From NCBI GenBank assembly GCA_015487235.1, contig WFQC01000152.1, positions 47,751 to 111,750 on the forward strand: a DNA stretch of 64,000 nucleotides. The letters are read 5' to 3'. Below the pieces are notes generated by a model. The model was not told the origin of the DNA. It searched no databases and worked only from the letters and a program-made list of their open reading frames with translations. A program made the position numbers and the translations under genes. The DNA comes from Alteromonadaceae bacterium (GTDB taxonomy: Bacteria > Pseudomonadota > Gammaproteobacteria > Enterobacterales > Alteromonadaceae). Below, in pieces: positions 23,613 to 51,435 of the stretch; the first letter of the stretch is position 1; each line of letters begins with the position of its first letter.

Positions 23613-24578
23613 ATGAAATATTTTCCCGTATTTATTGATGGCGACAAAATTGATGCCATGGTAATTGGTGGTGGCGATGTTGCAGCACGCAAAATAGAAT
23701 TATTACTAAAATCAACCAATAAAATCACTATTATGGCAGCCCAAATTAATGCCAATGTTTTACGATTAATTGAACATTATCACTTAACTTGGTTAGAACA
23801 TAATTATCGTACGGGCTTGCTTTGTGGTAAAAACTTAGTGATTGCCGCAACCGATAACAGCCAAGTCAATAAAAGTGTTTATGAAGAAGCCGAACAATTA
23901 AACATATTGGTTAATGTAGTAGATCAACCTGATTTATGTACTTACATAACCCCAGCAATAATTGATCGTTCGCCCATGATCATCGCGATTTCTAGCTCAG
24001 GCAGCGCTCCTGTATTAGTACGTATGTTACGTGAACAAATCGACAAAATGTTGCCCGACGGTTATGGCAAACTGGCTAAATTTTCATATAAATTTAGAGA
24101 TCATGTAAAAGCACGTATTAAAGGCGTGCGTAATCGCCGAACTTTTTGGGAAAAAACTCTTAATGGTGTAATTGGGCATACCGTACTCGCAGGCGATATT
24201 AACAAGGCAGAGCAAAAGCTCATTGCCAGCCTAAAACAACAAATCCCTCCCCCTGATGGTGAAATAGTGTTTATTCATACCCTCACAGGTGATCCTGATA
24301 ATTTAACACTCAAAGCTCATCGAGAAATGCAGTTTGCTGATGCCGTATTTTATGATGAGGACGTTAATGACGCCTTAATAGATTATGTAAGACGTGATGC
24401 TGAAAAGTACCCTCAAGCAGTTAGCTCATCTATTTTAGTTAACTATCAACATGCTATTGAGTTAGCACAAACAGGGCAAAAAGTTATTTACTTGCTCGCA
24501 GGCAATGAGCCGTTGCCTAATAATGTTGCTCTACAACAAAGTGGCATACTCACTAAAACGATTTTTTGTGGTGGTTAA
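23613..24578 (+). CDS. CysG-like siroheme synthase N-terminal module with a truncated, degenerate methyltransferase remnant
   Basis: 321 aa. Residues 1-200 align with the precorrin-2 dehydrogenase/ferrochelatase half of CysG (VIGGGDVAARKIELLL, ITPAIIDRSPMIIAISSSGSAPVL). The remaining ~110 aa align to the start of the SUMT domain, but GAGPGD is HTLTGD and GGDPFIFG is AGNEPLPN. The protein ends after about one third of that domain. Confidence 0.75.
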   Translation: MKYFPVFIDGDKIDAMVIGGGDVAARKIELLLKSTNKITIMAAQINANVLRLIEHYHLTWLEHNYRTGLLCGKNLVIAATDNSQVNKSVYEEAEQLNILVNVVDQPDLCTYITPAIIDRSPMIIAISSSGSAPVLVRMLREQIDKMLPDGYGKLAKFSYKFRDHVKARIKGVRNRRTFWEKTLNGVIGHTVLAGDINKAEQKLIASLKQQIPPPDGEIVFIHTLTGDPDNLTLKAHREMQFADAVFYDEDVNDALIDYVRRDAEKYPQAVSSSILVNYQHAIELAQTGQKVIYLLAGNEPLPNNVALQQSGILTKTIFCGG

Positions 24579-25235
24579 TTAAAGTGCACACGCAACGACT
24601 GCTGATCTTTTTTTGTCATTTTACCAACGACCAACCAATAGGAATTGTCCATCATTCGTTCAAGCTCACCGTGAGGAACACTGCCATCTAATATAATGGT
24701 ATTCCATGATTTTTTACACATATGATAGCCGGGAATAATGGCAGGAAAAATATCTCTGAGCATTATAGCTTCGTTAGGATCACATTTTAAATTAAGCCAA
24801 TAATATTTTTTATCCGCTGGTGTTTTATCAACACTTTTAGCGCGCTCACCTAGTGCCAATGTTGCAAACATTTTATTTTTTACTTTATACCCATGATACT
24901 TCAAGATGCGAGTTTCAGGATGCCTGAGCGATTCATGGTCAAGGCGCATCTTTTTATTAATGGTGTTCCCTTAAAAATAGATGCAACGAAGAACATGATT
25001 TGCTCAGGTATCCCCGTAAGGGCTGGTTTATAAACGCTTTATGCTACGTTATTGATTTCAACAAGGGAACAACCATTCTCTTCAATCAATGCCTTGCCTA
25101 AAAGCGTTTCTAATTCCAGCTGAATCCTGTATCTTGAGGTAACATGGGTATAAACACCATAATATCGTCACCAAAAGGATAACCAAGGCTGGTTTCAGGT
25201 TTTGCTAACAAGTACTGTTTAATTTGCGCTAACAT
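24575..25235 (-). pseudogene. MmcQ/YjbR-family gene split by a MITE insertion
   Basis: The N-terminal 28 codons (25152-25235, MLAQIKQYLLAKPETSLGYPFGDDIMVF) and the C-terminal 103 codons (24575-24886, KVKNKMFATL...GYHMCKKSWNTIILDG...) are in frame once the element and one TA are removed. The track ORF 24575-24949 (124 aa) starts with 21 element-encoded residues. Confidence 0.8.
24888..25150. mobile_element. 263-bp MITE-like nonautonomous element with TA target-site duplication
   Basis: The termini are TACCCATGATACTTCAAGATGCGAGTTTCAGG and GCTGAATCCTGTATCTTGAGGTAACATGGGTA. These 32-nt inverted repeats match at 25 of 32 positions and at 18 of the first 20. TA flanks both ends (24886-24887 and 25151-25152). 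The element has no transposase-sized ORF. Confidence 0.8.
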
Positions 25236-25321
25236 TATTTTTCCTCGAATAATAAATTTTATTAATGACAATTATGCTAACAATGGCACAATAGTAACAA
25301 TAATAAAAATAAGGATCTTAA

Positions 25322-26575
25322 ATGAAAGTTGTAATTAGCTTATTGTTATTGTTGTTAAGTAGTTTCAGCCATAGTGCTGAACAAGCGGAACAAATATTTA
25401 ATCAATTAGCGCCTTCACTCTATCAAATTCGCTTAATCGACAAAGCTAGCGGTGAGAAATCATCAATAGGCTCTGGTTTTCAAATTACTGCCGATGGTTT
25501 AATTGCAACCAATTATCATGTGGTTTCTGGTTTTGCGCGTTATCCCCATAAATATCAACTAGAGTATTTAGACAATCAAGGCAATAAAGCTGAATTAACC
25601 TTAGAAAGCGTTGATATTATTAATGATTTGGCCTTAGTAAAACGCGCAACAACCACTAAAATGCCCTATTTTACTATTGCGCAAAAACCCCCTATTAAAG
25701 GGGAAGAAATTTACTCTTTAGGTAATCCTCATGATCTTGGCATGATTGTCGTGCCAGGAACTTATAATGGTTTAAAAATAGAGTCTTTTAGTGACCGAAT
25801 TCATTTTACAGGCGCAGTAAACCCTGGCATGAGCGGTGGCCCTGTAGTTAATGCACAAGCTGAAGTTGTTGGTATTAATGTGGCCACATCAGGTAATCAA
25901 ATAGGTTTTTTGGTACCTCATCAAAAATTAGTTGACCTATTCACGAGTTATCAACAAAGCCCTCCACAAAGCATTGAAAAACAAATGCATGAACAATTAT
26001 TAGCTAACCAACAAGCATTAATTTCTGCTATTTTGGCTGAACCTTGGCAACAGAAACCGCTAGGAAATGCCGTAATTCCTGATTTTAATGTGCCTTTTAT
26101 TCGCTGTTGGGGTGAGTCAAACGCTGATAGAAGTGATGCCTTAGTACTGCTTGTAGTAACAAGTTGTGCGCTTGAAGAAGACACTTATATTGATAACAGT
26201 TTCTCTACTGATGTGGTTGAAATGGAATTTCGCTACATGAAAAGTAAAAAGCTCAATGCATTAAAGTTTTATAATATTTACCAACAACAGTTGTATCGAG
26301 TAGGGCCTGACAATCAAGCGGGTAAAGATGATGTGACTGAATTTCAGTGCCATCATGATCTTGTCACTAACAGTGCTAAGAATACCGACAGCAAAGCTAT
26401 TTTCTGTACTCGTGCTTATAAAAAGTTTCCGCAACTTTATGATGTCCTTTATTTATCAGCTTCTGTTGATAAAAATGATCAAGCTTTAATTAGTCATTTC
26501 ACTTTAGCCGGTGTCACACAAGCATCAGCCGCCGCCTTTACTAAGCAATTTATGGAGGCAGTATCATGGAAATAA
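25322..26575 (+). CDS. Secreted trypsin-like (S1-family) serine protease with a Cys-containing C-terminal domain of unknown function
   Basis: 417 aa with a signal peptide (MKVVISLLLLLLSSFSHSA). Catalytic-triad contexts are ATNYHVV, INDLALVK and NPGMSGGPV. No PDZ-like region is recognisable. The C-terminal ~200 aa contain four Cys. Confidence 0.8.
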   Translation: MKVVISLLLLLLSSFSHSAEQAEQIFNQLAPSLYQIRLIDKASGEKSSIGSGFQITADGLIATNYHVVSGFARYPHKYQLEYLDNQGNKAELTLESVDIINDLALVKRATTTKMPYFTIAQKPPIKGEEIYSLGNPHDLGMIVVPGTYNGLKIESFSDRIHFTGAVNPGMSGGPVVNAQAEVVGINVATSGNQIGFLVPHQKLVDLFTSYQQSPPQSIEKQMHEQLLANQQALISAILAEPWQQKPLGNAVIPDFNVPFIRCWGESNADRSDALVLLVVTSCALEEDTYIDNSFSTDVVEMEFRYMKSKKLNALKFYNIYQQQLYRVGPDNQAGKDDVTEFQCHHDLVTNSAKNTDSKAIFCTRAYKKFPQLYDVLYLSASVDKNDQALISHFTLAGVTQASAAAFTKQFMEAVSWK

Positions 26576-27531
26576 TTATCGAGGAGATCGGTCGCAATAA
26601 AAAACTATTAGCTCGACATAAATTTTTAACGAACAAAGTGACCTTAGGACGCGGCTACAATAATAGCGTTATATTGTCAGATCCTCATATTTGCCCAGAA
26701 CACCTTTCAATAGAGTTTGATGGCGAAAATTGGCTAGTTAAAGACAATAATAGTATCAATGGCAGTTTTTTAGCAGAAAGTAAGCAAAATGCTGATCAAC
26801 ATATTATTCATTCTGGTGATATTATTCGCTTAGGTAAAAGCTTTATTCGCATTATTTTACCTAATCACCCCGTTGAAAGCACCGTACCTTTTAGCTTCTT
26901 TGAAGGTCTTATTGATTTTTTACGAAAGCCACTCATTATTGCGTTCAATATTGCCTTTTTTACGCTTATTGCAGGGTTAATGTTTTATCTAAATCAGCCT
27001 AGCGATGTCAACTTTACACAAGTGATTGTACGCGCCATCGGCATTACTTTAATGTTTGCCACATGGCCTGTAATGATTGCTTTAATATCACACTTTAATA
27101 AACACGAAGCCCGTATTGTTACCCAATTAGCGGTAAGCTTTGCCTTTTTCAATTTAATGTGGTTTAGTGATGTTTTTGAAAGTATCGTCGCTTTTAACCT
27201 CTCTGCAAACTGGTCACTTGATAATCTAATAGCGTTAGTGCCCATTGCTCTCGCATTTTTGATGATTTGGCTCAATTGTTATATCGGCTTTCATATGAGT
27301 AAACGCAAACGTACCATTATTGCGTTATCAATTACTACCGTACTTTTTGGTGGTGGTTACATGATACAGTTGAGTAAACAGCCAGACTTTAGCGTATTGC
27401 CTAATTATGATGCGACAATTATGAATCCGGTATTTAAATTTGCGCCTAGCTCTTCAGTGGATGAATTTATTGAAGATACTAACAGGCTCTTTGAAAAAAC
27501 AGCCAAAGAAGCTCAAAAAAATAAAGAATAG
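26566..27531 (+). CDS. FHA-domain membrane protein (N-terminal FHA, about five TM segments)
   Basis: 321 aa. The FHA pattern is VTLGRGYNNSVILSDPHICPEHLSIEFDGENWLVKDNNSINGSFL, followed by five hydrophobic helices and a charged tail. The start overlaps the protease stop by 10 nt. Confidence 0.8.
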   Translation: MEIIIEEIGRNKKLLARHKFLTNKVTLGRGYNNSVILSDPHICPEHLSIEFDGENWLVKDNNSINGSFLAESKQNADQHIIHSGDIIRLGKSFIRIILPNHPVESTVPFSFFEGLIDFLRKPLIIAFNIAFFTLIAGLMFYLNQPSDVNFTQVIVRAIGITLMFATWPVMIALISHFNKHEARIVTQLAVSFAFFNLMWFSDVFESIVAFNLSANWSLDNLIALVPIALAFLMIWLNCYIGFHMSKRKRTIIALSITTVLFGGGYMIQLSKQPDFSVLPNYDATIMNPVFKFAPSSSVDEFIEDTNRLFEKTAKEAQKNKE

Positions 27532-27547
27532 CAATTAAAATAACCCT

Positions 27548-27578
27548 AAAAAAACGCGGTCACGAGGCCGCGTTTTTT
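27548..27578. terminator. Bidirectional rho-independent terminator
   Basis: AAAAAAACGCGG-TCACGAGG-CCGCGTTTTTT lies between the convergent FHA gene and trpS. Confidence 0.8.
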
Positions 27579-46892: not shown

Positions 46893-48743
46893 ATGATCAA
46901 AAGATATTTCTGGCTAGCCCTTGCTGTTTATTTCATTAGCGTACCTGCTGTTTTTGCAGCTTTAGCACCAAGTAATGATCAAAAGATAGAAGAAAATATT
47001 GCTCTTATTAACAGTTTTTATCGGTATAAAGGTGAAGTGCCGCCCTATAGCCAAATTGTTACTCTTGCCACAACCGTGATCAAAAACAGTAAAAGTTACA
47101 ATGATACCATCATAGCAAAAGCCTATGTTTTACTTGCCGATGCTGCGATTTATCAAGGAGATACGGCAAAAGCAGTGCAATTTTCTCAAGATGGCTTAAC
47201 GCAAGGCATGATTGATACCGATGTAAAACTTAATTTATTAATGAAAGTAAGCGCTGGTTTTTACATTCAGAGTAATTATCAAGCGGTATTAAAAACTATT
47301 GAACAAGTACTTGAGTTAGCCGTAGGTGAAAAATATTTAAAATATCGACTCAGCGCTTTTGGTTATCAAGCCACTATTCATGCCTTAGCTGGCGAATACG
47401 AAAAAGCCTATAAGCGATTAAAAGACATTGATATTATATTAGATAAAAACCCTCGTTTTACTGATCAAATTGAATTATTACAAATACTGGCTTTGGCTAA
47501 TCATAATTTAAGAGATTTTGAAACTTCACTGGCACTACACCTTAAATTATTACAAATTCAATTTAACTTAAATTTGAAAGAAAACATTGAACGTACTTAT
47601 TACTATTTAGCGCAAGCCTACCTTAAATTAGCGCGCTATGATGATGCTTATAATACTTTTTGGCAGGTAAAACTCTTAGCAGAAAAAAAATCTGCGCCTA
47701 TTTTACTCGCTTATGCTGAATTAGGTATTGGCGAAACCCTTTATGAACAAGGTGACTACGACGTTGCTTATTCGTCGTTAATCAAAGCGGAAAAATTATT
47801 TCGAGGTAAAAATTTAACCAAACTTTACCTTACTAACTTAATTGTATTGTCTAAAGCAGCCAAACAAACAGGGCGTACTATTTTTGCCTCACAATTACTG
47901 CAAAAGGCTGAAGAATTATCAACAAAAGCAGAGCTCGATCCTGATCAAATAATTCTTTACCAAATGCTTGCCCACAAATACCAGCATCAAGGTGATTACC
48001 AAAAAGCATTAAGCTTGTTAACCAAGTATGTAAGTGCAACAGAAAAACTAAAAGGTGAAGAGCTTGCCAAAGCAAAACTGCCTAAAAATGCAAAACAAGC
48101 TTCACAAAAAAGTAAAGACTTGGCGTTAAAGTTATCAGAGAAAGGTACTTTATATGCCGACTATAATAAAAACCATCAACGACTTATATCATATATTTGG
48201 GGGTTAGTTGCGCTGGTGGCAATACTAGCCATTGCGATGATATTTATTTGGTTAAAGTATCGTAATTACCGACTACGGGTTGAATATAATGAAATTGAAG
48301 CGCCCAAAGATTATTTACCATCGCCAGTAAAAACCAAAAATATTTATCAACAACAGTATAAAGAAGCGCGCAAATTTGAGTACCCTATTACCATTGTCTA
48401 TATTCTGGTACGCAACTGGCACGATCTATCTCATCATTTTACAAAAAGAGTGATGAAAGATGTGCACAAAGCTATAGCACAGCTAATTAACGAAAATATT
48501 AGTGAATTTGAAATTGCTGGTTGCCTTAATGAAGGTGAATATATCATTTTATTTCCTCATCGCACCAAGCAAGCGTTAACTGCCGAATTATCACAATTAT
48601 CACAGGCAATCAAAACAAGGTTTTTTGCCAATTTAGGTGAGTTTTCTGTTATCATTGAAATGTCGGCACAAACGCCCGATATACAAGACATTGACCCTTT
48701 TGTTTTCTTAGCTCAGCTAACTGAACAGCTAAAAAGCAAATAA
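46893..48743 (+). CDS. TPR-repeat protein with TM segment and degenerate GGDEF-like C-terminal domain
   Basis: The track ORF starts at the TTG at 46890, and an ATG follows at 46893. The protein has a signal peptide or anchor, about 380 aa of TPR-like repeats and a TM segment (LISYIWGLVALVAILAIAMIFIW). Its C-terminal domain aligns to GGDEF, but the active-site motif reads NEGEY and the RxxD position reads SEFE. Confidence 0.75.
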   Translation: MIKRYFWLALAVYFISVPAVFAALAPSNDQKIEENIALINSFYRYKGEVPPYSQIVTLATTVIKNSKSYNDTIIAKAYVLLADAAIYQGDTAKAVQFSQDGLTQGMIDTDVKLNLLMKVSAGFYIQSNYQAVLKTIEQVLELAVGEKYLKYRLSAFGYQATIHALAGEYEKAYKRLKDIDIILDKNPRFTDQIELLQILALANHNLRDFETSLALHLKLLQIQFNLNLKENIERTYYYLAQAYLKLARYDDAYNTFWQVKLLAEKKSAPILLAYAELGIGETLYEQGDYDVAYSSLIKAEKLFRGKNLTKLYLTNLIVLSKAAKQTGRTIFASQLLQKAEELSTKAELDPDQIILYQMLAHKYQHQGDYQKALSLLTKYVSATEKLKGEELAKAKLPKNAKQASQKSKDLALKLSEKGTLYADYNKNHQRLISYIWGLVALVAILAIAMIFIWLKYRNYRLRVEYNEIEAPKDYLPSPVKTKNIYQQQYKEARKFEYPITIVYILVRNWHDLSHHFTKRVMKDVHKAIAQLINENISEFEIAGCLNEGEYIILFPHRTKQALTAELSQLSQAIKTRFFANLGEFSVIIEMSAQTPDIQDIDPFVFLAQLTEQLKSK

Positions 48744-49799: not shown

Positions 49800-50657
49800 A
49801 TGAGTCAAGTTTTAGATGAATTACTCGCCTTATTAAAGCTAGAAGTAATTGAGCAAGGTATTTATCGAGGCCAAAGCCAAGATCTAGGTTTTAAAGCCTT
49901 ATTTGGCGGACAAGTAATGGGGCAAGCACTTTCAGCAGCCAAAGAAACCGTAACCGAAGGACGCTTTGTTCATTCGCTACATTCATACTTTTTACGTGCC
50001 GGTGATGCACAAAAACCTGTTGTCTATGAAGTAGAAAAAATTCGCGATGGTAAAAGCTTTAGCACTCGCCGCGTACAGGCAATACAAAATGGTCAAGCAA
50101 TTTTCTATATGACCGCTTCTTTTCAGATACAAGAGCAAGGTTTTGATCATCAAGATCAAATGCCCAATGTGCCAGCACCAGAAGATATTCCAAGCTACAG
50201 TGATTTTATTAAACAAAATCAACACTTTTTACCTGAAAATATGCGTAATAAGTTTTTAGCCGAACGTCCGATAGAAATTCGCCCCATCGAGCAATATAAC
50301 TGGGTAGATCCTAAACCAGCTCCCGCAGTCTGTAATATGTGGATAAAAGCCAATGGCAATATGCCAGACGATTTAAGAATTCACATGTATATGCTTGCAT
50401 ACACCTCAGATTTTCACTTTTTACCAACTGCTTTATATCCTCATGGTGTAAGTCATTGGCACCCTAATTTTCAAATTGCCACAATAGATCATGCCATGTG
50501 GTTTCATCGCCCTTTTCGCTTTGACGACTGGCTACTTTATTCAATGCAAAGCCCTAGTGCTTCAAATGGGCGAGGTTTAGTAAGAGGCCAGATATTTGAT
50601 CGTCAAGGACGCTTAGTTGCTTCAACAATACAAGAAGGTGTGATCAGACAACGTTAA
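49800..50657 (+). CDS. tesB: Acyl-CoA thioesterase II
   Basis: Homology to E. coli TesB starts at MSQVLDELLALLKLE (ATG at 49800, 285 aa). The track extension to 49725 has no counterpart. Confidence 0.92.
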   Translation: MSQVLDELLALLKLEVIEQGIYRGQSQDLGFKALFGGQVMGQALSAAKETVTEGRFVHSLHSYFLRAGDAQKPVVYEVEKIRDGKSFSTRRVQAIQNGQAIFYMTASFQIQEQGFDHQDQMPNVPAPEDIPSYSDFIKQNQHFLPENMRNKFLAERPIEIRPIEQYNWVDPKPAPAVCNMWIKANGNMPDDLRIHMYMLAYTSDFHFLPTALYPHGVSHWHPNFQIATIDHAMWFHRPFRFDDWLLYSMQSPSASNGRGLVRGQIFDRQGRLVASTIQEGVIRQR

Positions 50658-51435
50658 ATGACAATATTGTTCGGTAACCCTGAAGTAAATACTGCCAATC
50701 AGCATCTTGCCAATAAAAAGAGTTAAGTTTAGTTTTTTCTTTACGAAAAGAACGTAATAAACGCGCCATATTTTGCTGTAACCATGAAACGTTTAACGCT
50801 CGTTGCTCGCCACGATCAAAATCAATGAGCCATACTTTTTCTTGGTTATCTAGCAAAATGTTATGCGCATTTAAGTCATGATGATAAATACCTTGTTGAT
50901 GAAATTTCGCAATAGTTACACCGATCTTACGCCATATATCAGCAGATAAGGGTTGTTGAGTTAATAAAGCAACTAGATCATGCGCATTTTCAATGCGCTG
51001 GCTTAATAAATCAGCACGATAAAAAATGCCAGAACGCATAATACGACACGCAATAGGAGCTGGTGCAGGTAAGGCTAAACGCTGCATTAACTGCAACAAA
51101 GTAAATTCTTGTATCGCTCGTGTTTTTTCCAGACCCAAAAATAAATAACTGTCTTTAATTAATCGACCAACTAAACCACCTCGGTAATAATGTCTTAAAA
51201 CCCACTGTTGGCTTTTATGGGCAATAAACCAAGTGGTGCCGCGTCCTTGTGCACTGCCAACAATAGCATCATGCTGTTGCCAATAGTCACCATCCAGCAT
51301 TTTAGGGCTAAAATGAGCAATGGCATTAGCATCATACAAACAATAAAGTTTACCTTGTTGATAAACTTTTAGCTGACAGGGTTTTACAATTGCAGACAGG
51401 TTCAAGATAATACGCCTAGATAATTTACTTTCCAA
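50644..51435 (-). CDS. kdkA: 3-deoxy-D-manno-octulosonic acid (Kdo) kinase
   Basis: 263 aa with a kinase-like catalytic loop (YHHDLNAHNILL) and IDFDRG. It sits in the LPS-core gene neighbourhood. The N-terminal boundary is uncertain. Confidence 0.8.
   Translation of the reverse strand: MESKLSRRIILNLSAIVKPCQLKVYQQGKLYCLYDANAIAHFSPKMLDGDYWQQHDAIVGSAQGRGTTWFIAHKSQQWVLRHYYRGGLVGRLIKDSYLFLGLEKTRAIQEFTLLQLMQRLALPAPAPIACRIMRSGIFYRADLLSQRIENAHDLVALLTQQPLSADIWRKIGVTIAKFHQQGIYHHDLNAHNILLDNQEKVWLIDFDRGEQRALNVSWLQQNMARLLRSFRKEKTKLNSFYWQDADWQYLLQGYRTILSFNVV

Follow-up and report, generated by a model that had tools for sequence, protein, structure and literature searches.

A PDZ-less HtrA-clan protease and an overlapping gene for an FHA-domain membrane protein form a co-inherited pair in Pseudomonadota

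Background

HtrA proteases have a central role in the quality control of envelope proteins and in stress signalling, and to our knowledge their regulation is understood almost wholly through PDZ domains. Here a two-gene locus is described that encodes an exported member of the HtrA clan without a PDZ domain and, in an overlapping gene, a polytopic inner-membrane protein with an N-terminal FHA domain. It lies in a stretch of 64,000 nucleotides (hereafter the window; positions 47,751 to 111,750 of the forward strand of contig WFQC01000152.1, assembly GCA_015487235.1) from an Alteromonadaceae bacterium whose nearest named relatives belong to Colwellia, Thalassotalea and Thalassomonas, that is, a marine gammaproteobacterium of the Colwelliaceae type. 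A preliminary description, made from the letters of the window alone, had suggested that the two genes form a proteolysis-linked transmembrane signalling or quality-control module.

Several described systems share features with this locus. The HtrA (S1C) proteases, represented by Escherichia coli DegP, DegQ and DegS, Mycobacterium tuberculosis HtrA and human HTRA1-3, have the same chymotrypsin fold and His-Asp-Ser triad, and the bacterial enzymes the same periplasmic location. The DegS-RseA system combines a periplasmic HtrA-type protease with an inner-membrane protein whose binding domain is cytoplasmic and whose tail is periplasmic, and MarP (Rv3671c) of M. tuberculosis is a periplasmic S1 protease anchored to the cytoplasmic membrane through a polytopic segment. 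Cytoplasmic FHA domains are carried on membrane proteins in the FhaB/FipA (Rv0019c), Rv1747 (an ABC transporter) and FhaA systems of M. tuberculosis, which supply the nearest FHA sequences and structures, and the YscD/EscD/PrgH proteins (PF16697) of type III secretion systems have an N-terminal cytoplasmic domain of the FHA fold followed by a membrane span.

Results and discussion

Co-inheritance of the protease and its membrane partner

The protease gene (25322..26575, + strand, 417 amino acids) and the partner gene (26566..27531, + strand, 321 amino acids), which were delimited by open reading frames (ORFs), profile matches and AlphaFold2 models, have exactly the lengths and the 10-nucleotide overlap first reported for them. 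The same arrangement was found at about 140 loci in Colwelliaceae, other Alteromonadaceae, other gammaproteobacterial families and a second class of the phylum: a protease with the C-terminal domain described below always has the membrane partner directly downstream, and the two genes overlap by 4-28 nucleotides, usually 10 or 13. The overlaps of distant members span the same 4-28 nucleotides, as measured after correction of ORF starts that had been placed too far upstream.

Among 40 relatives surveyed, all 18 that have a full-length protease also have the partner gene abutting it, and where either gene is missing from a relative, the other is missing too, as in seven genomes of the same family with a completeness of 99-100%. 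More than 592 candidate loci came from a scan of GTDB species genomes, and the best 80 of them were examined; both genes are present with an overlap of 10 or 13 nucleotides at 78 of these, and the other two are cut by a contig end. An even sample of the class contained the C-domain protease in 27 of 400 genomes (approximately 7%), with the FHA-domain partner overlapping downstream at 23 of the 24 assessable loci and a membrane homologue without an FHA domain at the exception. A sample of the phylum contained members of another class with the same arrangement. The reverse search, with a profile of the transmembrane helices and tail alone, returned the same loci and one more, where the protease is present too. 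Co-occurrence of the two genes, which the preliminary description had named as a check on its proposal, is strict.

The genes around the pair differ by clade: trpS and rpe in Colwelliaceae, genes for TANGO2 and an aminotransferase in Paraglaciecola, genes for a methyltransferase and a response regulator in Rheinheimera, and tyrS and dps in the family designated f219. Clustering of the flanking ORFs of 80 loci revealed no third conserved gene common across clades. Thus, only the protease and its partner travel together, and the module is self-contained. The pair is present in single copy per genome, and its position is stable within families. That two unrelated genes are adjacent merely by chance is scarcely credible against reciprocal, near-perfect co-occurrence with a conserved overlap at approximately 140 loci in two classes with varying flanks, and this explanation can be considered effectively excluded.

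The distant hosts that carry a name include Cellvibrionaceae, Thiothrix, Candidatus Reidiella (a Solemya symbiont), Arenicella and records labelled 'Pseudomonadota bacterium'. Copies of the pair resembling those of Alteromonadaceae, with 44-54% identity to the protease of the window, also occur in records labelled as a Phenylobacterium metagenome-assembled genome (MAG; locus L066), Flavobacterium sp. W21_SRS_FM6 (L084) and a Klebsiella pneumoniae MAG (L100); these records are probably mis-binned or mislabelled.

A protease of the HtrA clan

The first gene had been described as encoding an exported S1-type protease with a His/Asp/Ser triad and a C-terminal domain containing four cysteines, and profile searches agree. 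The Trypsin_2 model (PF13365) matches residues 50-185 (E 8.4e-23), a region that includes the motifs NYHVV (64-68), NDLALV (101-106) and GMSGGP (169-174), and the triad H66, D102 and S171 is kept in 104-105 of 105 orthologues. The chain can be divided into a signal peptide (approximately residues 1-19), an N-terminal helix (20-32), the protease domain (33-212) and a family-specific C-terminal domain (C-domain, 218-413); a signal-peptide-like N-terminus was likewise recognised in 71 of 79 orthologues by a crude test.

The best NCBIfam matches of the protease are models of HtrA, DegP, DegQ, DegS and MarP, every one of which is far under its cut-off (TIGR02037, 79.3 versus 416.2 bits; DegS, 45.5 versus 423; DegP, 41.6 versus 720; MarP NF033740, 45.1 versus 250). 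A profile of 27 orthologues matched HTRA1-3, M. tuberculosis HtrA, DegP, DegQ and DegS in the PDB, HTRA1 being the best match (E 3e-22), and the AlphaFold2 model of the protease (predicted local distance difference test score, pLDDT, 84.5; whole-chain predicted template modelling score, pTM, 0.80) retrieved only HtrA protease domains in Foldseek searches (best E 7e-16, target template modelling score, TM-score, approximately 0.8). On these sequence grounds, the protein should be a periplasmic enzyme of the HtrA clan and is predicted to be catalytically active.

Some of the profile matches raise the question of a conflict or defence function, whether anti-phage or inter-bacterial, because the protease domain matches the RT-Protease_XI, PDC-M35A, Avs1b and LmuA models of PADLOC. 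These matches cover only the generic trypsin fold, however, and the FHA protein matches nothing in PADLOC; the protease is predicted to be exported; and the pair is a single-copy locus in stable positions among housekeeping neighbours (trpS, rpe, cysG-like, tyrS and dps). A defence role is therefore very improbable, and effectively excluded.

A family-specific C-terminal domain in place of PDZ

The absence of a PDZ domain, noted at the outset, was borne out by Pfam (to E 10 on residues 205-417), by the PDB sequence profile and by Foldseek, and Pfam found none in 27 orthologues either. The C-domain itself has no match in Pfam even at E 10, in the protein of the window or in the 27 orthologues, and the PDB sequence matches of the 27-orthologue profile stop at residue approximately 243, none of them reaching further into the C-domain. 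When Foldseek alignments were extended to the full M. tuberculosis HtrA, including its PDZ domain, the root mean square deviation was 11-13 A and there was no gain in TM-score.

In the AlphaFold2 model, the C-domain is an alpha/beta domain of 3 helices and 9 strands, and the whole-chain pTM indicates that it packs in a fixed manner on the protease domain. The codons of this part of the chain (residues 218-417; 25973..26572, + strand) specify four invariant cysteines (C262, C282, C343 and C362, in 105 of 105 orthologues) as well as R364, D374 and W416. Because the two members of each cysteine pair are on adjacent strands with approximately 20 residues between them, the C-domain probably contains two disulfides, consistent with a periplasmic location. 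Searched against 1.84 billion representatives, a profile of the C-domain identified 665 clusters at 50% identity. Full-length members are nearly always approximately 415-445 amino acids long and carry the domain at their extreme C-terminus, and the domain was found only in such proteases; the longer proteins among the 150 best representatives have N-terminal extensions or insertions.

The FHA domain and membrane helices of the partner

The preliminary description gave the partner an N-terminal FHA domain, five transmembrane (TM) helices and a tail of about 50 amino acids, and each of these was found. The FHA model PF00498 matches residues 25-90 (E 1.8e-12; 47.9 bits versus a cut-off of 20.7), and this is the sole FHA domain of the genome at E <= 0.001. 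By sequence profile and Foldseek, its nearest solved relatives are GarA/OdhI, Rv1747, FhaA and ArnA, with target TM-scores of 0.7-0.87 for ArnA, FhaA, GarA and OdhI. The AlphaFold2 model of the partner (pLDDT 83.4) consists of the FHA domain (residues 1-97; 26566-26856), a conserved HPV linker and a short interfacial helix (98-121), five TM helices (122-143, 150-177, 184-211, 216-242 and 246-269; together residues 122-269, 26929-27372) and a tail of 52 residues (270-321; 27373-27528).

Lysine plus arginine residues number, on average over 101 orthologues, 1.6 and 2.4 in the two short loops assigned to the cytoplasm and 0.58 and 0.31 in the two assigned to the periplasm. These loop charges fit a topology in which the N-terminus is inside and the C-terminus outside, so that the FHA domain is cytoplasmic and the tail shares the periplasm with the protease, which is the placement first proposed. 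The tail has low predicted order (pLDDT < 50) at residues 278-295, followed by a terminal amphipathic helix (298-320, with F301, L308 and F309). Column frequencies over the 101 orthologues define the tail motif F275-x3-P279-x-[YF]281-[ND]-x-T-[LI]-[ML]-x-P288-x-[FY]290, and the tail is conserved to a degree comparable to the TM helices (0.288 versus 0.258). Predicted disorder combined with conservation is a typical trait of segments that fold upon binding a partner.

The TM region has no invariant or near-invariant column and no invariant polar residue. There are weak matches to Yip1 (PF04893), at E 0.086 for the TM domain of the window and in 2 of 27 members (best E 0.0055), those that were scored being below the 28.6-bit cut-off; judged from such matches, the five-TM domain may be a distant bacterial fold of the Yip1 type. 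Precomputed Yip1 domain matches are carried by two distant homologues (P0464 and P0466). One homologue has been named a PrsW (M82) protease by the Joint Genome Institute, a name that was rejected for the family: PF13367 was not matched by the 27 members at E 0.05, and the TM region lacks conserved catalytic residues. Identity of the partner with Fha/TagH of type VI secretion systems (T6SS) was also rejected, on a TagH (TIGR03354) score of 34.1 versus a cut-off of 120.25 bits and a context of housekeeping genes, no systematic search for T6SS genes having been made.

A possible mode of action and its alternatives

The analysis establishes the gene structure, the domain content, the topology, the catalytic competence of the protease as judged by its sequence, the strict co-inheritance of the pair and its absence from known families. 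The best reading of these features, which we hold tentatively and at somewhat less than an even chance, is that of a membrane-tethered, partner-regulated periplasmic protease of the HtrA type with cytoplasmic input through the FHA domain. Both proteins would be made from one mRNA, the overlap of start and stop codons ensuring co-production, and would assemble into a complex on the periplasmic side of the inner membrane. The tail and periplasmic loops of the partner would dock on the C-domain, which would replace PDZ in its regulatory and docking role; docking would tether the protease and gate its activity; and the FHA domain would let a cytoplasmic ligand, either a phosphothreonine protein produced by one of the Hanks kinases of the cell or an acidic mimic, modulate the module from inside. 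Physical contact between the proteins, the direction of control, the substrate and the biological role are elements of this scheme that we infer. Of the signalling or quality-control role first suggested, co-conservation and topology have been upheld, and the link to proteolysis is an interpretation of them.

Family f219 bears on the place of the FHA domain in this scheme. In one genome of this family (G242; locus L133, G242:C1:1496483-1500091), the partner has 213 amino acids and no FHA domain, and in a sister genus (G398; locus L149, G398:C12:3800-8200) an FHA-like N-terminus has lost the GR and NG motifs. The f219 loci, where the pair is directly after tyrS and before dps, retain the protease, the four cysteines, the overlap, the membrane part and a tail of similar flavour. 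Because the protease and membrane partner are kept where the FHA domain is lost or degenerate, the sequences of this one lineage suggest that the core function is periplasmic, between protease and membrane protein, and that the FHA domain is an accessory regulatory part.

A more specific version of the tethered, partner-regulated protease is an inside-out switch, in which cytoplasmic phosphorylation would be read by the FHA domain and passed by the five-helix (possibly Yip1-like) transducer to the tail, which would gate the protease through the PDZ-replacing domain. Such a switch is unlikely in this full form. A number of observations weigh against the tethered, partner-regulated protease. The preliminary description noted that FHA domains bind phosphothreonine peptides, and the pocket here is only partly canonical: G28, R29 and N65 are present in 101 of 101 orthologues and H46 in 96, and the position of the phosphate-binding serine is Cys43 in the protein of the window and, over the 101 orthologues, Cys in 67, Ser in 17, Ala in 9, Asn in 4, Asp in 3 and Gly in 1. 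The protein of the window also passes the model of the YscD cytoplasmic domain (PF16697, 35.1 versus 33.2 bits), which is of a phospho-independent type; this model, which overlaps the general FHA model, was matched by 27 of 27 aligned members at E <= 0.05. Since the serine is mostly replaced and the YscD-type model is passed, the phosphothreonine reading is uncertain.

Kinases are a second point of this kind. As first reported, no protein Ser/Thr kinase is encoded nearby, the sole kinase-fold match in the window being a 263-amino-acid ORF (50644-51435, - strand) resembling the 3-deoxy-D-manno-oct-2-ulosonic acid (Kdo) kinase of the lipopolysaccharide (LPS) core. The genome encodes three Hanks kinases, none linked to the pair: two are PP2C-kinase fusions directly downstream of NarK-like transporter genes, and the third (611 amino acids, GTG start) is cytoplasmic and adjoins a patatin-like gene. 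No kinase or phosphatase was linked to the pair or co-distributed with it in the loci and relatives surveyed. A Hanks kinase is present in all pair-positive relatives and also in pair-negative relatives of the same family, and because Hanks kinases occur both with and without the pair, kinase co-distribution is uninformative and no cognate kinase can be named. In addition, no fusion of the protease with its membrane partner was found among the 150 best C-domain representatives, and Foldseek searches with the two full-length models gave HtrA protease-domain and FHA matches only, for the C-domain of the protease from a list dominated by the protease domain and for the TM bundle of the partner alike.

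The two PP2C-phosphatase/Hanks-kinase fusions (G000:C158:26094-29810, L103; G000:C56:5848-9480, L104) are paralogous, have a C-terminal TM helix and each follow a gene for a NarK-like nitrate/nitrite transporter, in what looks like a conserved transporter-kinase arrangement.

Much of this evidence also favours a model in which the FHA domain is a phospho-independent structural or oligomerisation domain, as in YscD/EscD/PrgH, and the pair a constitutive, membrane-anchored quality-control or processing protease without a link to kinases. In its favour, 83% of orthologues have Cys, Ala, Asn or Asp in place of the serine, PF16697 is passed by the protein of the window and matched in all aligned members, and neither a kinase nor a phosphatase is linked to the pair or co-distributed with it. 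It leaves unexplained, however, why Arg29, which is the principal ligand of the phosphate and has no structural role, and Asn65 are invariant, why the best sequence and structure matches are genuine phosphothreonine readers, why the serine is kept in 17% of orthologues, distant members included, and why Hanks kinases are present in every pair-positive relative searched. A purely structural FHA domain is decidedly unlikely on this balance.

The main rival to the tethered, partner-regulated protease is orthogonal to the structural model and concerns the tail, which could equally be a cleavage site instead of a docking site, a further point against the preferred scheme. As in the DegS-RseA system, control would run from the outside in: an envelope signal would activate the protease, which would cut the tail of the partner, thereby destabilise or remodel this membrane protein, and so alter or release whatever the FHA domain binds in the cytoplasm. 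The conserved, disordered periplasmic tail is rich in aliphatic residues, which HtrA proteases prefer; co-inheritance is strict and co-translation 1:1; and the partner resembles RseA in layout, combining a binding domain in the cytoplasm, a membrane-spanning part and a tail in the periplasm. Against this, none of the examined loci has a linked gene for a site-2 protease, a sigma factor or a transcription factor, and five TM helices would be hard to release by intramembrane cleavage. In family f219 the pair persists although the FHA output has been lost, which is hard to explain if cytoplasmic output is the purpose, and the fixed 1:1 output of overlapping genes suits a stable complex more than a signalling substrate. 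Cleavage of the partner as a signalling substrate is accordingly regarded as an unlikely explanation.

Locus layout and transcription signals

The 10-nucleotide overlap of the pair, ATGGAAATAA (26566..26575, + strand), places the start of the FHA gene over Trp416, Lys417 and the stop codon of the protease, and a Shine-Dalgarno sequence of the partner gene, GGAGG (26554..26558, + strand), lies within the protease coding sequence, 7 nucleotides before the second ATG. All members with an overlap of 10 or 13 nucleotides have Trp416, whose TGG codon gives the TG of the ATG of the partner; members with a 4-nucleotide ATGA overlap lack it. The conservation of Trp416 may thus be due in part to the overlap of its codon with the start codon of the partner.

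Upstream of the protease gene, a promoter scan identified a putative sigma-70 promoter (25265..25292, + strand) with a -35 element ATGACA (25265-25270), a 16-nucleotide spacer and an extended -10 element TGGCACAAT (25284-25292), followed by a ribosome-binding site AAGGA (25311..25315, + strand) that was read from the sequence; an aGGA motif is kept before the ATG in aligned upstream regions. The extended -10 element is present letter-for-letter in 33 of 78 upstream regions, all of the Colwellia/Thalassotalea group, and is 36-40 nucleotides before the ATG in 27 of the 33; ATGACAA, 16 nucleotides further upstream, is kept in 23 upstream regions. These conserved elements match a sigma-70 promoter with an extended -10, from which a short leader and a single bicistronic mRNA are predicted. 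No sigma-E-type promoter was found in any of the 78 regions. A sigma-54 promoter was also considered and rejected, since the conserved TGGCAC is not followed by the -12 element TTGC and an extended -10 sigma-70 promoter fits instead.

The 9-mer TGGCACAAT is exact within intergenic sequence that otherwise diverges between the window and loci L023-L064, and is located further upstream where an insert is present. Its conservation exceeds the need of a plain -10 element, and a repeat of ACAAT, approximately two helical turns apart, could also be a regulator site.

In the window, the pair is flanked by trpS, rpe, yjbR and cysG-like genes. A spacer of 85 nucleotides separates the protease gene from the divergent yjbR gene upstream. 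This yjbR/mmcQ gene (24575-25271, - strand) is split into an N-terminal part (approximately 25110-25236) and a C-terminal part (24575-24949), and the protease promoter is situated just past its start. Downstream, the bidirectional intrinsic terminator (27549..27578) is shared with the convergent trpS gene and is as strong as had been claimed: a 13-bp GC-rich hairpin flanked by an A-run and a T-run, so that a U-run follows the hairpin on each strand, folds with -18.6 kcal/mol on the + strand (z -5.1) and -18.2 kcal/mol on the - strand (z -3.5), and no shuffled sequence equals either value.

Significance and comparison with known systems

Searches of profiles, structures and the literature found no characterised system that matches the pair, in agreement with the preliminary description, and full-text searches of the literature collection that was covered found no published account of it. 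The protease belongs to the HtrA clan without having its defining PDZ domain and scores below every curated cut-off, the partner has no significant match to a family of membrane proteins, and the pair as a whole is uncharacterised. A subfamily is thus represented that has exchanged PDZ for an uncatalogued domain and added an obligate membrane partner with a cytoplasmic FHA domain, in hosts that include abundant marine heterotrophs and sulfur-oxidising symbionts. If the tethered, partner-regulated protease is the correct reading, the pair would be a compact route by which cytoplasmic state is coupled to periplasmic proteolysis, and a new way to gate an HtrA protease; if the inside-out switch were to prove true, Ser/Thr kinase signalling would directly control periplasmic proteolysis in Gram-negative bacteria. 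One lineage, having lost the FHA domain naturally, provides a built-in comparison, and the size of the module, two genes, makes it easy to test.

In comparison with the HtrA proteases of the S1C family, the enzyme described here has a four-cysteine domain of approximately 200 amino acids instead of PDZ, is below every HtrA cut-off and is accompanied by an obligate gene for a membrane partner. The DegS-RseA system differs in that RseA has one TM helix and an anti-sigma domain, whereas the partner here has five TM helices and an FHA domain, and the genes here overlap and are co-translated; this locus also has no PDZ sensor, no linked sigma factor or RseP gene and no promoter of the sigma-E type (0 of 78). 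In MarP, the four TM helices are in the protease chain itself and there is no FHA domain, whereas here the membrane protein is separate and the protease chain has a signal peptide only. The FHA proteins of M. tuberculosis are linked to kinases of the PknB or PknF type and are not known to be paired with a periplasmic protease, whereas here no kinase is linked and the serine of the pocket is mostly cysteine. Finally, unlike YscD, EscD and PrgH, the partner has five TM helices rather than one, a short tail without periplasmic ring-building domains, no secretion-system genes in its flanks and an invariant phosphate-binding arginine.

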